From the NCBI GenBank assembly GCA_951406725.2, contig OX597837.1:24924001-24988000 (forward strand): DNA of 64,000 bases, in the 5' to 3' direction. The position numbers were made by a program, and so were the translations under genes. How positions within the stretch are numbered: position 1 is the stretch's first letter; the number at the start of each line of letters is the position of its first letter. This DNA is from Octopus vulgaris (lineage: Eukaryota). The notes under the pieces are model-generated. The model was given only the letters and a program-made list of their open reading frames with translations. It ran no database searches and was not told the DNA's origin. This document shows, piece after piece, positions 8,838-62,516 of this stretch.

Positions 8838-8854
8838 ATGTGTGTGTGTGTATG

Positions 8855-8890
<36 letters not shown>

Positions 8891-8911
8891 TATATATATA
8901 TACACACACAC

Positions 8912-8986
<75 letters not shown>

Positions 8987-9065
8987 TATATACACACACA
9001 CACACACACATATATATACACACACACACATATATATATATATACACACACACATATATATATAT

Positions 9066-9098
<33 letters not shown>

Positions 9099-9453
9099 CA
9101 TACATACATATATATATATACACACACACATATATATATACACACACACATATACATACACACACACATATATATACACACACACATATATATATACACA
9201 CACACATATATATACACACACATATATATATATACACACACACATATATATATACACACACATATATATATACACACACACACATATATATATATACACA
9301 CACACATATATATATACACACACACATATATATATACACACACATATATATATATACACACACATATATATATACACACACACACACATATATATATACA
9401 CACACACACACATATATACACACACACACACACATATATATACACACACACAC

Positions 9454-9494
<41 letters not shown>

Positions 9495-9673
9495 CACACA
9501 CACACACACATATATACACACACACATATATACACACACACATATATATATACACACACACACACACATATATACACACACATACACATATATATACGCA
9601 CACACACATATATACACACACATATATATATATATACGCACACACACACATATATACACACACATATATATAT

Positions 9674-9713
<40 letters not shown>

Positions 9714-9717
9714 GCAT
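8838..9717. repeat. Compound (TA)n/(CA)n microsatellite, about 880 bp
   Basis: Directly visible; explains the six long low-complexity ORFs here. Confidence 0.97.
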
Positions 9718-9957
9718 ATATGCTTTATTTAAAAGCAGCAGAAATTCAACAAAACCTGTTACTCGGAGTTTCACGTTCCCGTTCGTCGGACAGTTTTGTT
9801 AAAATTTTAACAAAACTGTCTGATGAACGGGAACGTGAAACTCCAAGTAACAGGTTTTGTTGAATTTCTCCTGCTTTTAAAAAAAGCATATTACTCTACC
9901 CCTGGTATTTGAGTACTCTTTTTTTCCACCTTGTTTCACATTTATGTGTTTACTCCG

Positions 9958-9960
<3 letters not shown>
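9718..9960. mobile_element. Penelope-like element remnant: 174-bp palindrome plus tail
   Basis: Arms 9718-9804 and 9805-9891 with no loop; carries hammerhead motif; flanked by (TA)n. Confidence 0.65.
9811..9859 (+). ncRNA. Minimal type I hammerhead ribozyme-like motif
   Basis: Stem I caaaactgt/acaggttttg, core CTGATGA, stem II ACG-GGAA-CGT, GAAA, short stem III ACT-cca-AGT, cleavage triplet GTA. Confidence 0.65.
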
Positions 9961-10009
<49 letters not shown>

Positions 10010-10010
<1 letters not shown>

Positions 10011-11236
10011 ACTTCTGTCACTTTCCGGGGGAAAAACTAGAAGTAGTTGATAGCTTCCGCTATCTAGGTGACCAAGTCAGTAGTGGGGGTGGGTGCGCTG
10101 AAAGTGTAACTGCTAGAATAAGAATAGCCTGGGCAAAGTTTAGGGAGCTCTTACCTCTGCTGGTGACTAAAGGCCTCTCGCTCAGAGTAAAAGGCAGACT
10201 GTATGATGCATGTGTACGAACAGCTATGCTACATGGCAGTGAAACATGGGCCGTGACTGCTGAGGACATGCGTAAGCTCGTGAGGAACGTAGATGCTCCG
10301 ATGGATGTGTAATGTCAGTGTACTTACTCGACAGAGCGTTAGTACCTTGAGAGAAATGTTGTACCTAAGAAGCATCAGTTGTTGTGTGCAAGAGAGACGA
10401 TTGCGCTGGTATGGTCATGTGGCGAGAATGGATGAAGATAGGTGTGTGAGAAAGTGCCAATCCCTAGCAGTTGAGGGAACCCGTGGAAGAGGTAGACCCA
10501 GGAAAACCTGGGACGAGGTGGTGAAGCACGACCTTCGGACGTTAGGTCTCACCATGGAAATGACTAGAGACCGAGACCTATGGAAGTATGCTGTGCGTGA
10601 GAAGACCCGGCAAGACTAGTGAAGCCATAATCCGTGGCCCCTACCTGGGACGTAGTCAGTCCACCTGTGCATACCTTCCTTCTTGTGACACTTGTGAAGA
10701 CCTGTTGAGGCAAGTGAGAATCGAATCGTATCGAATCAAATCGAACCAAATCAAAATAGATGAACATCAATGGAATTTGTATCCTTGTGGTACCAGTGCC
10801 GGTGGCACATAAGAAAACCATCCGAACGTGACCGTAGCCAGTACCGCAATGACTGGCCTCCGTGCTGAGGGCACGTAACAAACACCATCCGAGCGTGGCC
10901 GTCCGCCAGCCTCGTCTGGCACCTGTGTCGGTGACACATAAGAAAACACCATCCGAGCGTGGCCGTCTGCCAGCCTCGTCTGGCACCTGTGTCGGTGGCA
11001 CATAAAAAACACCATCCGAGCGTGGCCGTCTGCCAGCCTCGTCTGGCACCTGTGTCGGTGGCACATAAAATCACCCACTACACTCTCGGAGTGGTTGGCG
11101 TTAGGAAGGGCATCCAGCTGTAGAAACACTGCCACATCTGACTGGCCTGGTGCAGCCTTCGGGCTTCCCAGACCCCAGTTGAACCGTCCAACCCATGCTA
11201 GCATGGAAAGCGGACGTTAAACGATGATGATGATGA
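10010..11236 (+). mobile_element. RTE-clade LINE, 5'-truncated, with RT thumb/C-terminal coding remnant and full 3' UTR
   Basis: EKLEVVDSFRYLG..RIRIAWAKFRELLPLL..LYDACVRTAMLHGSETW / RRLRWYGHVARM..RGRGRPRKTW; frameshift near 10290; stop at 10619; (GAT)n tail. Confidence 0.92.
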
Positions 11237-12021
11237 TATATGTATATGTATGTATAAGTAGAAGTAGTTTTTTTTAATTAAAATCCAAAGACAGACAATG
11301 GATATGCTAAGACCAGCCCTCCACAACAGAATTGAGATCTTAAAACCAAGGTACCACATAAAAAACATTAGTGCAGGTGCCACTTAAAAAGCACCCAGTA
11401 CATTCTGTAAAGTGGTTGATAGGCATCCAGCAATGTAGAATTTGTTATTTTATTTACTGGAATATTTTCCATGATTATGATAAAACTGTGCCGGTGGCAC
11501 ATAAAAAGCACCATCCAATCGTGGCCGTTTGGCAGCCTCGTCTGGCACCTGTGCCGGTGGCACGTAAAAAGCACCCACTACACTCACGGAGTGGTTGGCG
11601 TTAGGAAGGGCATCCAGCCGTAGAAACATTGCCAGATCAGACTGGAGCCTGGTGAAGCCTTCTGGCTTCCCAGACCCCAGTTGAACCGTCTAACCCATGC
11701 TAGCATGGAAAGCAGATGCTAAACGATGATGATGAAACAGATTCCTAATTATAGGATATGAGGGGAGAAAGCAGGATTAAAGTGAGAAAAATCACTGATT
11801 CACTGCTCTAAGTTTGACATTAATCAAATTCAACATGCTTATCATACTTACACAATTATTCTGTTAATTAGCCAAGAACTAGATTTTACTTAATTTTATG
11901 CTTTAGAATTAATGAAATATAAATATGATACTAGGCTAAAAAGGTTATAGACTATTTGAGATGAGACTGGGATAGTACCAGTAATATATTGATGTTCACA
12001 ACGGTTTTCCAAAGTTCTTAC

Positions 12022-38990: not shown

Positions 38991-40009
38991 GGCTAGAGAA
39001 TGAGTTTAAATATTTTTAGCAATATTTCTATGTTGAAAAATTCAACCAACTGGCAGAACCGTTACCATGCTTAGTGGCATTTCGTCCATCTTTATCTTCT
39101 GAGTTCAAATTCCACTGAGGTCAACTTTGCCTTTCATCCTTTTGGGGTCAATAAGATAAGTACCAGTTGAGCACTTTGGTTGCCGGTGACACATAAAAGC
39201 ACCATCCGTTTCGTGACCGTTTGCCAGCTCTGTCTGGCCCTCGTGTCGGTGGCACGTAAAAGCACCATCCGTTCGTGTCCGTTGCCAGCCTCGCCTGGCC
39301 CCCGTGCCGGTGACACGTAAAAGCACCATCCGTTTGTGACCGTTTGCCAGCTCTGTCTGGCACCTGTGCCGGTGGCACGTAAAAAGCACCCACTACACTC
39401 ACGGAGTGGTTGGTGTTAGGAAGGGCATCCAGCCGTAGAAACACTGCCAGATCTGACTGGGCCTGATGAAGCCTTCCAGCTTCACAGACCCCAGTTGAAC
39501 CATCCAACCCATGCTAGCATGGAAAACGGACGCTAAATGATGATGATGAAATGAACTAACCCGATCTCCTGAACTTGCCGTCCTTATGCCAGAATTTAAA
39601 ACCCATATTTCTGTGTCAAAAGAAGGTGGTGAGCTGGCAGAATCATTACCGTGCTGGGCAAAATGCTTAGTGACATTTCGTCTGCTTTATGTTCTGAGTT
39701 CAACTTCGCTGAGGTCAACTTCGCCTTTCATTCTTTTGGGGTCGAACAAATAAGTACCAGTTAAACACTGGGGTTGATGTAATCAACTTACCTCCTCCTC
39801 TGAAATTGTTGATCGTGTGCCAAAATTTGAAGCCTATATTTCTATGTTGAAAGTTTTCTACAAGTAAACATATTCCTTAAATATGCTTGATCTATGATTG
39901 TGTAACTTCTGATGATGGCATTTTCTTTGTGTCTGAAGGTCATGAAAAAGAGCAGCATGCCTTCAAATGGCTATGTAAACTGATCTTTGAGGCTGTAGGA
40001 CTTGTCTTC

Positions 40010-47765: not shown

Positions 47766-48654
47766 GAGAGCTATTACCTTTCTTGGTAACAAAGGGACTC
47801 TCTCCCTGAGTGAAAGGCAGATTTGCCAACCTTACTACTATTGCTAGTACCACGTAAAAAGTACCTATTACACTTTGTAGAGTGGTTGGTTTTAGGAAAG
47901 ATGCCCAGCTGTAGAAACCATGCCAGAGAAGACTGTTGAGCTTGGCATCCTTTGAATCCCCATCTCCTGTCAAACTGTTCAAACCATGCCTGCATAGAAG
48001 ATGGACATTAAATGATGATGATGATTATATATTATACATACACACACACACACACATGTACAGAAAAATATTTTTTGAACCGTCTGGCACCACCATCCGT
48101 TCATGGCCGTTGCCAGCGCCGCCCCGACTGGCCTCGTGCTGGTGGCACGTAAAAGGCACCATCCGTTCATGGCCGTTGCCAGCGCCGCCTCGACTGGCCT
48201 CGTGCTGGTGGCACGTAAAAGGCACCATCCGTTCGTGGCCGTTGCCAGCCTTGCCTGGCCCCCGTGCCAGTGGCACGTAAAAAGCACCATCCGTTCGTGG
48301 CTGTTGCCAGCCTCGCCTGGCCCCCATGCCGGTGGCACGTAAAAAGCACCATCCGTTCGTGGCCGTTGCCAGCCTCACCTGGCCCCCGTGCCAGTGGCAC
48401 ATAAAGAGCACCATCCGATCGTGGCCGTTTGCCAGACTCGTCTGGCACGTAAAAAGCACCCACTACACTCTCGGAGTGGTTGGCGTTAGAAAGGGCATCC
48501 AGCCGTAGCAACATTGCCAGATCAAACTGGGCCTAGTACAGCCTTCTGGCTTCCCAGACCCCAGTTGAACCGTCCAACCCTTGCCAGCATAAAAAGCGGA
48601 CGCTAAACGATGATGATGATGATAATGAATGTTGACCAAATAAATAAAATTTAA

Positions 48655-56682: not shown

Positions 56683-59600
56683 CTTACTGTATTGTTTTTG
56701 TTTTGTTGTAAATAGTTTGTTTTATTAGCTTTATCATCATCATTTTTCATCTCCTGGCAACTGTTTGTTGTATATCTTTCTCTTTCTCTTTTACTTGTTT
56801 CAGTCATTTGACTGCGGCCATGCTGGAGCACCGCCTTTAGTCGAGCAAATCGACCCCTGGACTTATTCTTTGTAAGCCCAGTACTTATTCTATCGGTCTC
56901 TTTTGCCGAACCGCTAAGTGACGGGGACGTAAACACACCAGCATTTGTTGTCAAGCAATACTAGGGGGACAAACATATACACACACATACATATATATAC
57001 ATATATACGACAGGCTTCTTTCAGTTTCTGTCTACCAAATCCACTCACAAGGCATTGGTCGGCCCGGGGCTGTAATAGAAGACACTTGCCCAAGATGCCA
57101 ACGCAGCGGGACTGAACCCGGAACCATGTGGCTGCTAAGCAAGCTACTTACCACACAGCCACCCCTGCGCCTTGGTTTTTATTACTGGATGTCCTTCATA
57201 TCATTAATCACTTTACAGCATGGATGAACTGCCAGGACATGCCCACCACTAAGGAGGGGAGTGGGGCACTGGATGGCACTGCCCCTTCACTGTTCAGTTA
57301 CACTTCTATTACTATCACTACCACCACAAGTGGGATGGCCAAAAGTGGGGACAATAGATGTAAAAACAACAAAATAATAGATGAAGTTTATTAATGAAAT
57401 ATATATTTCTTTACTACCCACAAGGGGCTAAACATAGAGGGGACAAACGGATTAAGCTGATTACATCGACCCCAGTGCGAAACTGGTACTTTATTTATCG
57501 ACCCCGAAAGGATGAAAGGCGGAATTTGAACTCAGAACGTAACGACAGACGAAATACCTATTTCTTTATTACCCACAAGGGGCTACACAGAGAGGGGACA
57601 AACAAGGACAGACATAGGTATTAAGTCGATTCCATCGACCCCAGTGCGTAACTGGTACTTAATTTATCGACCCCAAAAGGATGAAAGGAAAAGTCGACCT
57701 CTGCGGAATTTGAACTCACAGCGTAGCGACAGACGAAATACCACTAAGCATTTCGCCCAGCGCGCTAACATTTCTGCCAGCTCACCGCCTTCTTATTAAT
57801 GAAATATAGTCATTTTGAATTTGCCACAGAAAGCGGTCTATGTTTGTGATGGTGAATGGTGGTCTGAGTGTCAAGTGTGTACTGAAAATGTTTGGGGATC
57901 GCTAGTGTGAATACACCTGAAATCAGCTCGCAGTGCTGCTTATCCAGACTGAAACAGAACAGAGAAGTTTCTAAGTTTTAGATTCAACACAACCAGGTTT
58001 TATGTAATGTCAAGTATCATCATCGTTTAGCATCCGCTTTCCATGCTAGCATGGGTTGGACGGTTCAACTGGGGTCTGGGAAGCCAGGAGGCTGCGCCAG
58101 GCCCAGTCTGATCTGGCAGTGTTTCTATGGCTGGATGCCCTTCCTAACGCCAACCACTCCGAGAGTGTAATGGGTGCTTTTTATGTGCCACCTGCACAGG
58201 TGCCAGATGAGGCTGGCAAAATGTCACGATCGGGTGATGCTTTTTACGTGCCACTGGCACAGGGGCCAGATGAGGCTGGCAACGGCCACAATCGGATGGT
58301 GCTTTTTACGTGCCACCGGCACGGAGGCCAGTCGGGGCGGGGCAGGGCTGGCAATGGCCACGTTCAGACGGTTCTCTTACGTGCCACTGGCACCGGTATC
58401 TCAGCTACAATTTCCAATTTTCATTCAAATCCAGTGTAGTTTTCAACTTTTGGCTCAGTATATTTGCTCTGCTGTTTGCCAAGCAACTGAAGTAAAAATT
58501 ATTTCAGATTTACACCCAGAAAAGGCATGATGGTGACTTAAATGTCTGTTTAGTTTTACTACATTGACCTACCAAATGGTATCAAGATAGACAGGCTAAT
58601 TAGGTTCTTTTTACTTTTGTCATGTCTGTCAATTAACATAATGAATAATGAGAGAAATGCAATCAGATTATGAGGACTAAACCTTACTTAGTTTTAAGTT
58701 GCCACTTCTCTTATCTTTCACTTGTCACAATCATCAGACTATAGCCATGCTGGGGCACCACCTTGAAAAACTTTTGGTCAAATGAATCAGGCCCAGTACT
58801 TATTCTATTGGTCTCTTTTGCTGAACTGCTAAGTTACAAGGACATAAACACACCAACACTGGTAGTCAAGCGATGGTAAGGGACAAACACACACATCCAT
58901 ATAATGATGATGATGTTGCTTCTTTCAATTTCCATCTATCAAATCCACTCACAAGGCTTTGGATGGCCTGAGGCTGTAGTAGAAGACACTTGTTTAAGGT
59001 GCCACGCAGTGGGACTGAACCCAGAACCATGTGATTGGGAAGCAAGCTTCTTAACACACAGCCATTCTTGCGTTCTATACTCGTGTTTTGTTTGTTCCTT
59101 CTCGAGCTACACCTGGCTCATTAGGGCCGGTTTCCTTGGCATATAGGTTCCCCACCTGGACGGGACACCGGTCCATCGCAGGTGAGCTGCAAGATGCAGG
59201 AGGAAAGAATGAGAGAAAGTTGTGGCGAAAGAGTCAGCAGAAGTTTGCTACTACCTTCTGCTGGAGCCGCGTGGAGCTTAGGTGTTTCAATCATAAACAC
59301 ACACATTGCTCAGTCTGAGATTCAAACCTGTGATCCCTTGACCGTGAGTCCGCTGCTCTAACCACTAGGCCATGTGCCTTTACTCTTTACTTCTGTAACA
59401 ACTTCTTAACATTAATTTAAATGTTCTAATTGTTCATCAAAGAGTTCTCATCATCATCATCATCATCATCATCGTTTAGCGTCCGTTTTCCATGCTAGCA
59501 TGGGTTGGACGGTTCTACTGGGGTCTGTGAAGCCAGAAGGCTTCATCAGGCCCAGTCAAATCTGGCAGTGTTTCTACGGCTGGATGCCCTTCCTAACGCC

Positions 59601-62516
59601 AACCACTCCGTGAGTGTAGTGGGTGCTTTTTACGTGCCACCCGCACTGGTGCCAGACAGAGCTGGCAAACGGCCACGAACGGATGGTGCTTTTTATGTGC
59701 CACCGGCACGAGGGCCAGGCGAGGCTGGCAACGGACACGAAACGGGGCGGTGCTGGCAGCGGTCGCGAATTCTTCTACAAACTATACTTTCTGGTACTTT
59801 ACATAAATTTATTAACATTTCCTTGCTCTCTCTCCCTCTCTTCACCATAACATACAATATATTAGTTGTGATTGTTCTTGTCCTATAATTTATCTCACTC
59901 TCTATGTTTAGTATTTTGTGAGCAATCTATCAAAAGTACTTTTAATCCTGTTGTATCCAGTTTACTCTGTCAAATCTAATGCTTATTTATTCACATTGGT
60001 TTGAATTAATTATGCATAGAGGTGGCTGTGTGGTAAGTAGCTTGCTTACCGACCACATGGTTCAGGGTTCAGTCCCACGACGTGACACCTTGGGCAAGTG
60101 TCTTCTACTATAGCCTCGGGTCGACCAAAGCCTTGTGAGTGGATTTGGTAGACAGAAACTGAAAGAAGCCCGTTGTATATATGTATATATATATATATTT
60201 ATGTGTGTGTCTGTGTTTGTGCCCCCAACATCGTTTGACAACCGATGCTGGTGTGTTTACGTCCCCGTAACTTAGCGGTTCGGCAAAAGAGACCGATAGA
60301 ATAAGTACTAGGCTTCCAAAGAATAAGTTCTGGGGTTGATTTGCTCGACTAAAGGTGGTGCTACAGCATGGCCACAGTCAAATGACTGAAACAAGTAAAA
60401 GAGTAACTCATAGCCTCAATATTTTAGTGATGTGATTTGTTATTTTTAGAATAATATTGTAAGGTAGGTGTGAAAGGCCAGATCTAGCTGGCCATCTCGG
60501 CTTCATGTACCAAACTATCATAGCTGTATTACCGTGATATAGAATGAAAGTGGCTCGCTTGAAAGAAAGAGGTGCAGAGTGATCTTTCTAACAGCACAGC
60601 TGCTTCTAAGAGCAAGAACGAGGGGAACATCAACCCCCAGTACATGACAGGTACTTTATTGGTCTCAGAAGAATGTAATGGTGAAGTGGACCGTGGCAGG
60701 ATCTGGACTCAAAATCAAAGAATTGGAACTGCTACCACAAAGGTATTTGCCCATCAAACTAATCATTTTGTCAGTAAACCACATCAGGAGTCACTCATTC
60801 TGAACAATTTAGTGCAATTGCAGTACAGTCTCATCTCTAGTGTCACCAAGTCTTTTTCATCAGTTTCCTTCTCAAAACTCAATTTAACAACAATTTCAGA
60901 ATTTTTTAATACTCCTCTCATCACATCAATTTTCCACATAGTCAATATGGTAGTCTTCCGGTTTCATTTATTTTACGTCCATATGTAGGCATAGGAATTG
61001 CTGTGTGGTAAGTAGCTTGCTTACGAACCACATGGTTCCGGGCTCAGTCCCACTGCATGGCACCTTGAGCAAGTGTCTTCTACTATAGCCTCGGGCCAAC
61101 CAAAGCCTTGTGAGTGGATTTGGTAGACGGAAACTGAAAGAAGCCCGTCGTATATATATATGTGTTTGTGTTTGTCCCCCCTTGAGTTTCTAACCTCAAT
61201 AAAGGAAAGATAAAGAGTTGTTTCTCTGGTTGAAGTACAATAAGATTTTCTACTACTCATAACGATTGAATTTAGTTAAGATTATATCCAACTGTTTAGT
61301 ATTTACAGAGCAGGATTATGACATGGTGGATGGTGGGTGTTATGTCTAAGGTTCCCACAGAATCATTACATAATCATCATCGTTTAATGTCCGTTCTCTT
61401 TAGTAAACAGATCTGTTGATTTTGATGATGAACATTCAATGATTGAATCAACTAAACTACCTGCTCTTTGAATAAGCATGAACCCTTGAGGGGATTCTGA
61501 GACAATCAGCTTGACACAGTGTGAGGGTTACCTTTAAATTCCAGGAACAATCCATCTGATGAACTGAATGGTTTCCATTGAGTCACTCCCATTTGTAAGG
61601 TTTGGACGTGAAATTATAGAAAAAAAAATCCTTCCCCATCCCACATGCCATGCAATGGGGATAAATCCAGTACCTTGTGATTGCAAAGTGAGCCCTCTTA
61701 ATTATTTGGTCATTCAACAACTGTAGAAACTGTGAGGAATCCTGTTGAGTGGTTTCTACCCTACCTGGAATTCAAAGCTCCAGTGTTTGTCATGCTGATT
61801 CTGCCCAAGGATTACATTAAGGTATCCTGTGGAATAGACAGAGATCCATTTATCTCTCTGGACTGGCTTCTGTGCCGGTGGCACGTAAAAAGCACCAACC
61901 TATCGTGGCCGCTGCCAGACTCCCCTGGCACCTGTGCCGGTGGCACATAAAAAGCACCCACTACACTCACGGAGTGGTTGGTGTTAGGAAGGGAATCCAG
62001 CTGTAGAAACATTGCCAGATCAGACTGGAGCCTGGTGCAGCCTCCTGGCTTCCCAGACCCTGGTCAAACAGTCCAACCCGTGCTAGCATGGAAAATGGAC
62101 GTTAAATGATGATGATGTACCAGAACAAAGAAACTTGATGGAATGTACTCTCACTCACTGCCATACTACACATCAGGCCTATTGTACTTCACACATCCTA
62201 CCAATTCATTTCCTCCAGCATTCATGAAATGTGTGTTGGATTTTCCCACACAATAACAACTTCTATTTTTCACTTCATTTGGAGGTAGCAGTTTAAAATC
62301 TCCTAAGCTCGTTCAGTCAACTCCTTTCTCCAGTCTCAGATCAATATGCTCAACTTCATCATCATGATCATTTAGCATCCGTTTGCCATGCTGGCATGGG
62401 TTAGCTGGTTTTACTTGAATTGGTAAGTCAGAGAGCTGCACCAGGCTCGTCTGTTTTGGCTTGGTTTCTACAGCTAGATGCCTTCCTAATGCCAACCATT
62501 TCCATAGAGTATAGTG

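Follow-up and report, generated by a model that had tools for sequence, protein, structure and literature searches.

A Hydra-clade Penelope-like insertion with head-to-head ends and a variant hammerhead core in Octopus vulgaris

A palindrome with back-to-back hammerhead motifs, found in a 64,000-nucleotide stretch of the Octopus vulgaris genome (hereafter the window), marks an ordinary insertion of a new Hydra family within the Penelope-like elements (PLEs), with a real, datable variant in the hammerhead core. The best explanation as a whole, which we consider probable, is a Hydra-clade PLE insertion in which two 5'-truncated end pieces were joined head to head within a TA repeat, likely by reverse transcription that started at two sites and ran off the RNA end, and which is predicted not to cut itself.

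Results

The palindrome and its parts

A sequence-only reading of the window had described a 174-bp palindrome without a loop, and the arms agree with that description: 9718-9804 and 9805-9891 are 94% complementary with a loop length of 0, 82 of 87 pairs being matched and 5 of 87 positions different (Table 1). We number element positions throughout from window position 9805 as position 1. The inverted arms stand, but the two outer limits do not hold as element ends. On the left, the element ends at 9723 after 82 nt, and the outer 5 bp are TA tract that matches the start of the tail by chance. On the right, element sequence runs past 9891 to 9958 and is followed by (TA)n.

The motifs had also been read correctly. 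The plus arm has the type I layout of CTGATGA, ACG-GGAA-CGT, GAAA and GTA, and the minus arm reads CCGACGA and ACTCCGAGT. All three core-region differences (arm positions 17, 20 and 41) are CpG-type transitions as claimed, and the other two (element positions 66 and 78) are not CpG-type. At each of the five mismatches it is the right arm that has changed, and the left arm keeps the family state.

Table 1. The insertion and its target flanks, in window coordinates
Feature	Coordinates	Strand	Basis
(TA)n/(CA)n microsatellite, left target flank	8851..9722	.	TRF arrays 8851-9713 and 9688-9721; sequence
Left arm, an 82-nt end piece running from element position 82 to 1; short end just past AATAAAG	9723..9804	-	
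Minimal type I hammerhead, master state CCGACGA (C3 9789, C4 9788), stem III palindrome intact, predicted cut after 9760	9751..9797	-	
Head-to-head junction AAAA/TTTT with central self-complementary AATT, at the family's recurrent 5'-end site	9801..9808	.	Shared centre; 5'-end pile-up
Right arm, element positions 1-82; left arm's subfamily at all diagnostic sites checked	9805..9886	+	
Hammerhead with CpG-decayed core CTGATGA (9820-9826), stem II 9827-9836, GAAA 9837-9840, damaged stem III (G41A, 9845), predicted cut after 9849	9812..9858	+	
72-nt PLE tail between two fixed ends; continues into 5' UTR and ORF in full-length copies	9887..9958	+	
(TA)n tract, right target flank	9959..10008	.	TRF

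No further pieces of the PLE were found in the 64-kb window. Adjoining the insertion, positions 10010-10600 hold a broken 3' fragment of a LINE ORF, which we take to be RTE-like from its motifs. A dispersed repeat with 61-63-bp tandem units occurs at 10788-11735, 39181-39390, 48091-48446, 58173-58331 and 59622-59741.

The arms are the ends of a multicopy Hydra-clade element

A first-look search of the 2.8-Gb genome, with the right arm and its continuation to 9960 as query, returned 1,984 candidates. Exact matching found 690 copies of a 34-mer from the arm of the window's subfamily; the corresponding anchor in younger subfamilies occurs 7,632 times and the hammerhead pattern 6,534 times, the last count being a lower bound on motif copies. 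Reversed controls gave 0 matches in each case, so the arm and hammerhead matches are not due to chance, and the 690 and 6,534 matches establish the multicopy family that a genome-wide search with the arm had been proposed to reveal. Five groups could be told apart among the copies: A0 and A (the latter being the window's subfamily) with a CCGACGA core and GGAA loop; A2; C with CCGATGA and a GCAA loop; and B with CTGATGA.

Copies stop at two fixed places, after position 82 (short end) or at about position 155 (tail end). TA adjoins the short end in 101 of 103 arms and the tail end in 82 of 96. An AATAAA stops one base before the short end. In long copies, the motif is preceded by a 1.2-kb 3' UTR and, upstream of that, an ORF; a full copy runs hammerhead, tail, 65-nt leader, ATG. 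Between tail and ATG, about 50 nt before the ORF start, lies a TATA-like word, TATAAAAG (loci L090-L115). Locus L258 (C12:43652000-43661900) contains two tandem 3,430-bp units of the youngest subfamily with open 710-aa ORFs, and this subfamily may still be active.

The 710-aa ORF carries RWK at residue 37, DKT at 113, the reverse transcriptase (RT) motif YRDDG at 344, a GIY-YIG-like GVVY..YTG at 579-599 with no cysteines between, CxxC at 666 and CxH at 694; there is no CCHH in the endonuclease. A CxCX5C linker is present in all nine readable A/A2 copies, and its second cysteine is often F or Y in younger copies. Within the linker (ORF residues 561-569), F, Y or L replaces this cysteine in 13 of 17 B copies and 4 of 9 C copies, yet both subfamilies still target TA. 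The ORF has 1,050 full-length homologues at E<=1e-20, the closest database protein being 58% identical, and a Pfam scan of four ORF fragments gave no matches. By eye, the protein resembles published Hydra proteins. With the Hydra-clade elements of Craig et al. (2021, PMC8557442), as described there, it shares RWK, DKT, the CxCX5C linker, the lack of CCHH, CxxC/CxH and the C-terminal GIY-YIG-like domain.

An ORF with Hydra-clade motifs is thus linked to the hammerhead motif, which bears out the suggested Penelope-like origin; the retrozyme origin offered beside it is not supported, the motif belonging to a 3.43-kb ORF-bearing unit. Could the palindrome itself be the mobile unit, as a non-autonomous retrozyme or a foldback (MITE-like) element? 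We regard this as very unlikely. Its 24-nt centre (at most one mismatch) does recur at nine distinct loci among the copies examined, the window's own included, and most subfamily A copies are shorter than 160 nt. However, the junctions are highly variable, every subfamily shows the centre type independently and built on a word of its own, the sequence forms the end of a unit that bears an ORF, and there are no tandem monomers, unlike in retrozymes as described in PMC7229834. We conclude that the palindrome is almost certainly a single insertion of a Hydra-clade PLE.

Identity with Hydra-1_Obim was rejected, as the hammerhead differs from that in File S2 of PMC8557442 and the protein differs at many sites by eye. 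A decayed piece of a second Hydra family, resembling Hydra-1_Obim by eye, lies at L054:7680-8624 on the minus strand.

Core position 4 separates older from younger subfamilies

CCGA occurs in 2,694 of the 6,534 exact motif matches, a lower bound on C at core position 4 (C4) because old copies miss exact patterns more often. We tallied cores of A, C and B in position-ordered samples picked regardless of core, with 54 of 98 arms gap-free in A. C4 is present in 50 of these 54 A arms and 25 of 27 C arms, and in 0 of 40 B arms, all 40 of which read CTGATGA. In the oldest subfamily traced, the first 100 of 1,206 matches comprise 68 CCG, 18 CTG and 12 CCA. C4 copies also occur in contigs of all four public runs searched, from three studies, with 31-112 contigs each. 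The proposal that CCGACGA is the ancestral core therefore holds for the master of the window's subfamily (50/54 C4) and the oldest traced (68/100 CCG), but does not extend to the whole lineage, whose youngest and most numerous subfamily is CTGATGA in 40 of 40 arms.

Trees of 69 end regions and of 41 ORF segments are ladders in which end branches shrink from C4 (A) to U4 (B) copies; the ORF tree has few old copies, with 11 of its 41 rows, duplicates included, on the old side. Moreover, tail divergence falls from 0.055 in A0 to 0.025 in A, 0.015 in C and 0.007 in B (n = 8, 48, 16 and 27). From the ladder trees and the falling divergence together we read C4 as the older state and U4 in B as a reversion that came late. 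This root gains no confirmation from protein outgroups, whose sites on the C-B branch lean against this order when the closest homologue is used (2 on the old side, 5 on the young side, 8 on neither), and a pool splits 6 versus 5. Overall, we consider it highly probable that C4 was ancestral and then reverted to U4, and the canonical U4 of the youngest subfamily most likely arose by reversion.

At an earlier time C4 would itself have been derived: CCGA marks four older subfamilies here, in contrast to the Hydra hammerheads of File S2 in PMC8557442, where CTGA is found in 26 of 26 rows. We found no C4 core in any PLE in the literature searched, which covers studies of PLE hammerhead variants incompletely.

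Arms reaching more than 50 nt upstream make up 0 of 98 sampled A arms versus 20 of 60 B arms, the A sample being 98 of 100 listed sites, and one of the two left out being a long copy. A change in processivity or in the use of the promoter between A and B is possible.

The right-arm core arose by CpG decay

The CTGATGA of the right arm is a CpG-decayed form of the CCGACGA master. Positions 27, 32, 40 and 50 of the right arm, like its tail, have the A-type state; descent from the canonical young subfamily is ruled out because all other diagnostic sites are A-type. Across A arms, 7.6% of CpG sites are changed versus 2.4% of sites elsewhere. In the genome as a whole, CTGA occurs with A-type stems 100 times, 18 of these reading CTGATGA, and CCAA 58 times, a real excess (p = 0.001). 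Decay is thus asymmetric, and the A-type copies may include a small U4 sublineage. Where copies with T4 have a readable inverted partner, the partner keeps C4 in 11 of 11 cases, as in the window (30 loci checked, 18 without a full partner core and one a mis-hit). The same decay broke the stem III palindrome of the right arm, with a dimer energy of -0.1 kcal/mol versus -7.8 kcal/mol for the left arm.

A-to-I editing is ruled out as a source of the arm differences, as the family state is found in the left arm and the right-arm changes are C>T and G>A. Separately, in one run that we guess to be RNA, A>G makes up about 16-17% of depth both at the final base of the cleavage triplet and at the base that follows it, in 14 contigs each (L258:5699-5705, element positions 40, 45 and 46), with about 0 in three other runs. 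This is a hint of A-to-I editing of fold-back RNA, which would spoil the cut site.

A probably weak hammerhead motif and no cleavage footprint

A hammerhead search against Rfam, suggested as a check on the motif, gave no match at E<=10 for the region or for either arm. Folded as monomers over 57 nt, neither arm was better than shuffles (z +0.6 to +0.7), and the hammerhead was not the minimum-energy fold. The order and helices are those of a type I motif, with 14 of 14 modelled pairs standard in both arms and position 4 a C in the master. A palindromic helix III would form a dimer at -7.4 to -7.8 kcal/mol in the left arm, B and C. Stem II has only 2-3 bp, and G10.1-C11.1 is absent, being replaced by A-U, A.G or A.A; many of the Hydra motifs published in PMC8557442 likewise lack this pair. 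The U4C change likely weakens the motif of the older subfamilies.

A cut RNA would give copies starting at position 46, and only 5 of 199 arms end at 44-48, none of them in B or C. We therefore see no cleavage footprint, in agreement with the Poseidon element PAc of Anolis, which takes uncleaved RNA as its substrate (Frangieh et al. 2024, PMC11167929).

At the window locus, the palindrome folds on either strand into a hairpin of -127 to -128 kcal/mol, compared with about -2 kcal/mol for the hammerhead monomer. Since the antisense arm comes first on either strand, this stability predicts that self-cleavage is absent, and the locus is unlikely, on these fold models, to be a working ribozyme. That the locus was exapted by the host as a ribozyme pair or a miRNA-like hairpin RNA gene is hardly credible. 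Its hairpin is indeed strong (-128 kcal/mol) and Rfam miRNA models do match; those matches, however, all fall below the gathering score and are expected for any long hairpin, one arm carries five unrepaired changes, three of them at CpG, and the locus sits inside a microsatellite and other repeats.

In the parent element, the hammerhead would be a weak motif of the dimer type. U4C would have been tolerated through at least four subfamilies before reverting to U4 in the youngest, and cleavage would not be needed before copying. How far selection acted on the motif can be read in two ways. According to the first, U4C marks a dead relic, in which the master went on spreading after the loss of its ribozyme and got U4 back through an ordinary, unselected CpG mutation. 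We place this at somewhat below an even chance; it concerns function only and is compatible with our overall explanation. It is favoured by the considerable loss of in vitro activity reported for U4C (cited in PMC3088659), the 2-3-bp stem II without G10.1-C11.1, the lack of a footprint in any subfamily, the unimpaired in vitro insertion of PAc hammerhead mutants (PMC11167929), and the fact that CCG to CTG is the commonest change. The pattern of master changes speaks against a relic. Five of the six A-to-B changes in the 43-nt motif fall on eight positions left free by the fold (N7, the N of GNRA, 11.1, the loop III centre and the stem I bulge; hypergeometric 3e-4, uncorrected for CpG). The masters also retain four further CpGs in stems and core, and the stem I bulge occurs in three states.

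The second reading, which we hold to be doubtful, is that a live but down-tuned U4C ribozyme was selected through at least four waves and later traded one weakness, C4, for another, an open stem II base. The thousands of stubs would then be the record of an enzyme that acts as a dimer, priming a single time at each of two RNA sites, on opposite strands of the DNA, and running off the cap. If true, it would explain the head-to-head palindromes typical of all PLEs.

Most inverted insertions combine a short end and a tail end

An inverted partner lies within 330 nt of 121 of 199 arms, and 12 more have a tail piece only. Among 95 distinct inverted insertions, 92 have one short and one tail end. 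The 5' ends pile up at positions -5 to +5 (75 of 199 arms) and fall off in an upstream cliff, with 0 at -10 to -6, 7 at -49 to -11 and 26 long; values below -50 are limited by indels and count only as long. An initiator-like YYANWYY word stands at the pile-up in all main variants. The pile-up is shaped partly by local palindromic words. For comparison, Drosophila Penelope has an internal promoter in its pLTR (PMC2377424).

These regularities can be accommodated by a mechanism with two starts, which we moderately favour. The transcript would begin at the initiator-like A, 16-17 nt before the core. The RT-endonuclease would nick both strands of (TA)n and prime on opposite target strands, with one start at element position 82 and the other at about 155 (5' copies of these sites). 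RT would then run off the RNA 5' end, and the two cDNAs would be joined head to head, their ends annealing by 2-4 nt of microhomology (AATT/TTAA here, CTAG in younger subfamilies). Classic L1 twin priming on one RNA would not put both arms on positions 1-82. Both arms do cover these positions, so two RNAs or strand displacement must be assumed. The two-site start has been shown for PAc (PMC11167929), and we infer the remaining steps.

A competing account, which we consider rather unlikely, is fold-back self-priming, in which one cDNA or antisense template folds at a short palindromic word and is copied back, the endonuclease setting the second end later. Near symmetry about the centre in 53 of 95 inverted insertions, centres on AATT, TTAA or CTAG words, and the proposal that rotifer PLEs prime themselves on an antisense template (PMC3846280) would all fit. 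However, in 92 of the 95 the copied-back arm would have to stop exactly where the other fixed end lies, 42 of the 95 junctions are asymmetric (for example with arms ending at 3 and 35, or at 2 and 42), and non-inverted arms stop at the same site.

Discussion

PLEs have already been described with truncated copies in inverted orientation, palindromes at the junction, tails and minimal hammerheads. The insertion shares with Hydra-clade elements, as PMC8557442 describes them, (TA)n targets, an inverted 5'-truncated copy and a tail at one end, and with Hydra-2_aJap and Hydra-2_aMil a hammerhead with an ACTC-N-GAGT stem III and ACAG. It differs from that description in its 3.43-kb unit (Hydra elements are "generally <3 kb"), its 72-nt tail (30-40 nt there), and its stem II of only 2-3 bp with a GNRA loop.

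PAc resembles the octopus family, in the account of PMC11167929, in its two internal RT start sites that define the tail, its AT-rich targets, the extension of both strands, its use of uncleaved RNA as substrate, and the lack of ends at the cleavage site. It differs in belonging to another clade, in its canonical core, and in a hammerhead that overlaps the ORF start, compared with about 200 nt upstream here. A rule of one short and one tail end, or a twin-priming account for PLEs, was not found in the literature searched, whose coverage is incomplete; the parts of the PAc paper available to us give no pairing statistics for inverted insertions (PMC11167929).

The minimal PLE hammerheads of Cervera and de la Pena (2014, PMC4209133) are likewise type I, with a palindromic helix III and dimer dependence, and include opposite-strand motifs 100-700 bp apart in mostly truncated copies. 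Their consensus differs, being CUGANGA with G10.1-C11.1, and the core variant reported in the text available to us is U3-A8, not C4. Natural C4 has precedents elsewhere: a U4C viroid variant, weaker in vitro and sufficient in vivo (cited in Perreault et al. 2011, PMC3088659), and CYGANGA matches in deep-sea RNA viromes (PMC13481778). As described in these sources, neither is a retrotransposon motif, whereas here a minimal motif without loop-loop contacts is the master of thousands of insertions. Rotifer Penelope pLTRs, as presented by Arkhipova et al. (2013, PMC3846280), share head-to-head inverted repeats, junction palindromes, a one-sided tail and an Inr-like word; they differ in low copy number and in palindromes explained by self-priming on an antisense template.

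In motif searches, at least 41% of this family's motifs would escape a descriptor that requires CUGANGA. The role of hammerheads in PLEs is described as unclear in PMC8557442, in the part available to us. The one-short-one-tail rule and the 5'-end cliff make the origin of PLE inverted ends directly testable by biochemistry, and the five 60-nt natural variants are suited to a side-by-side assay. The lineage as a whole is a natural experiment: its subfamilies are dated and differ at a core position, each of them multiplied by hundreds to thousands, and none shows a cleavage footprint.
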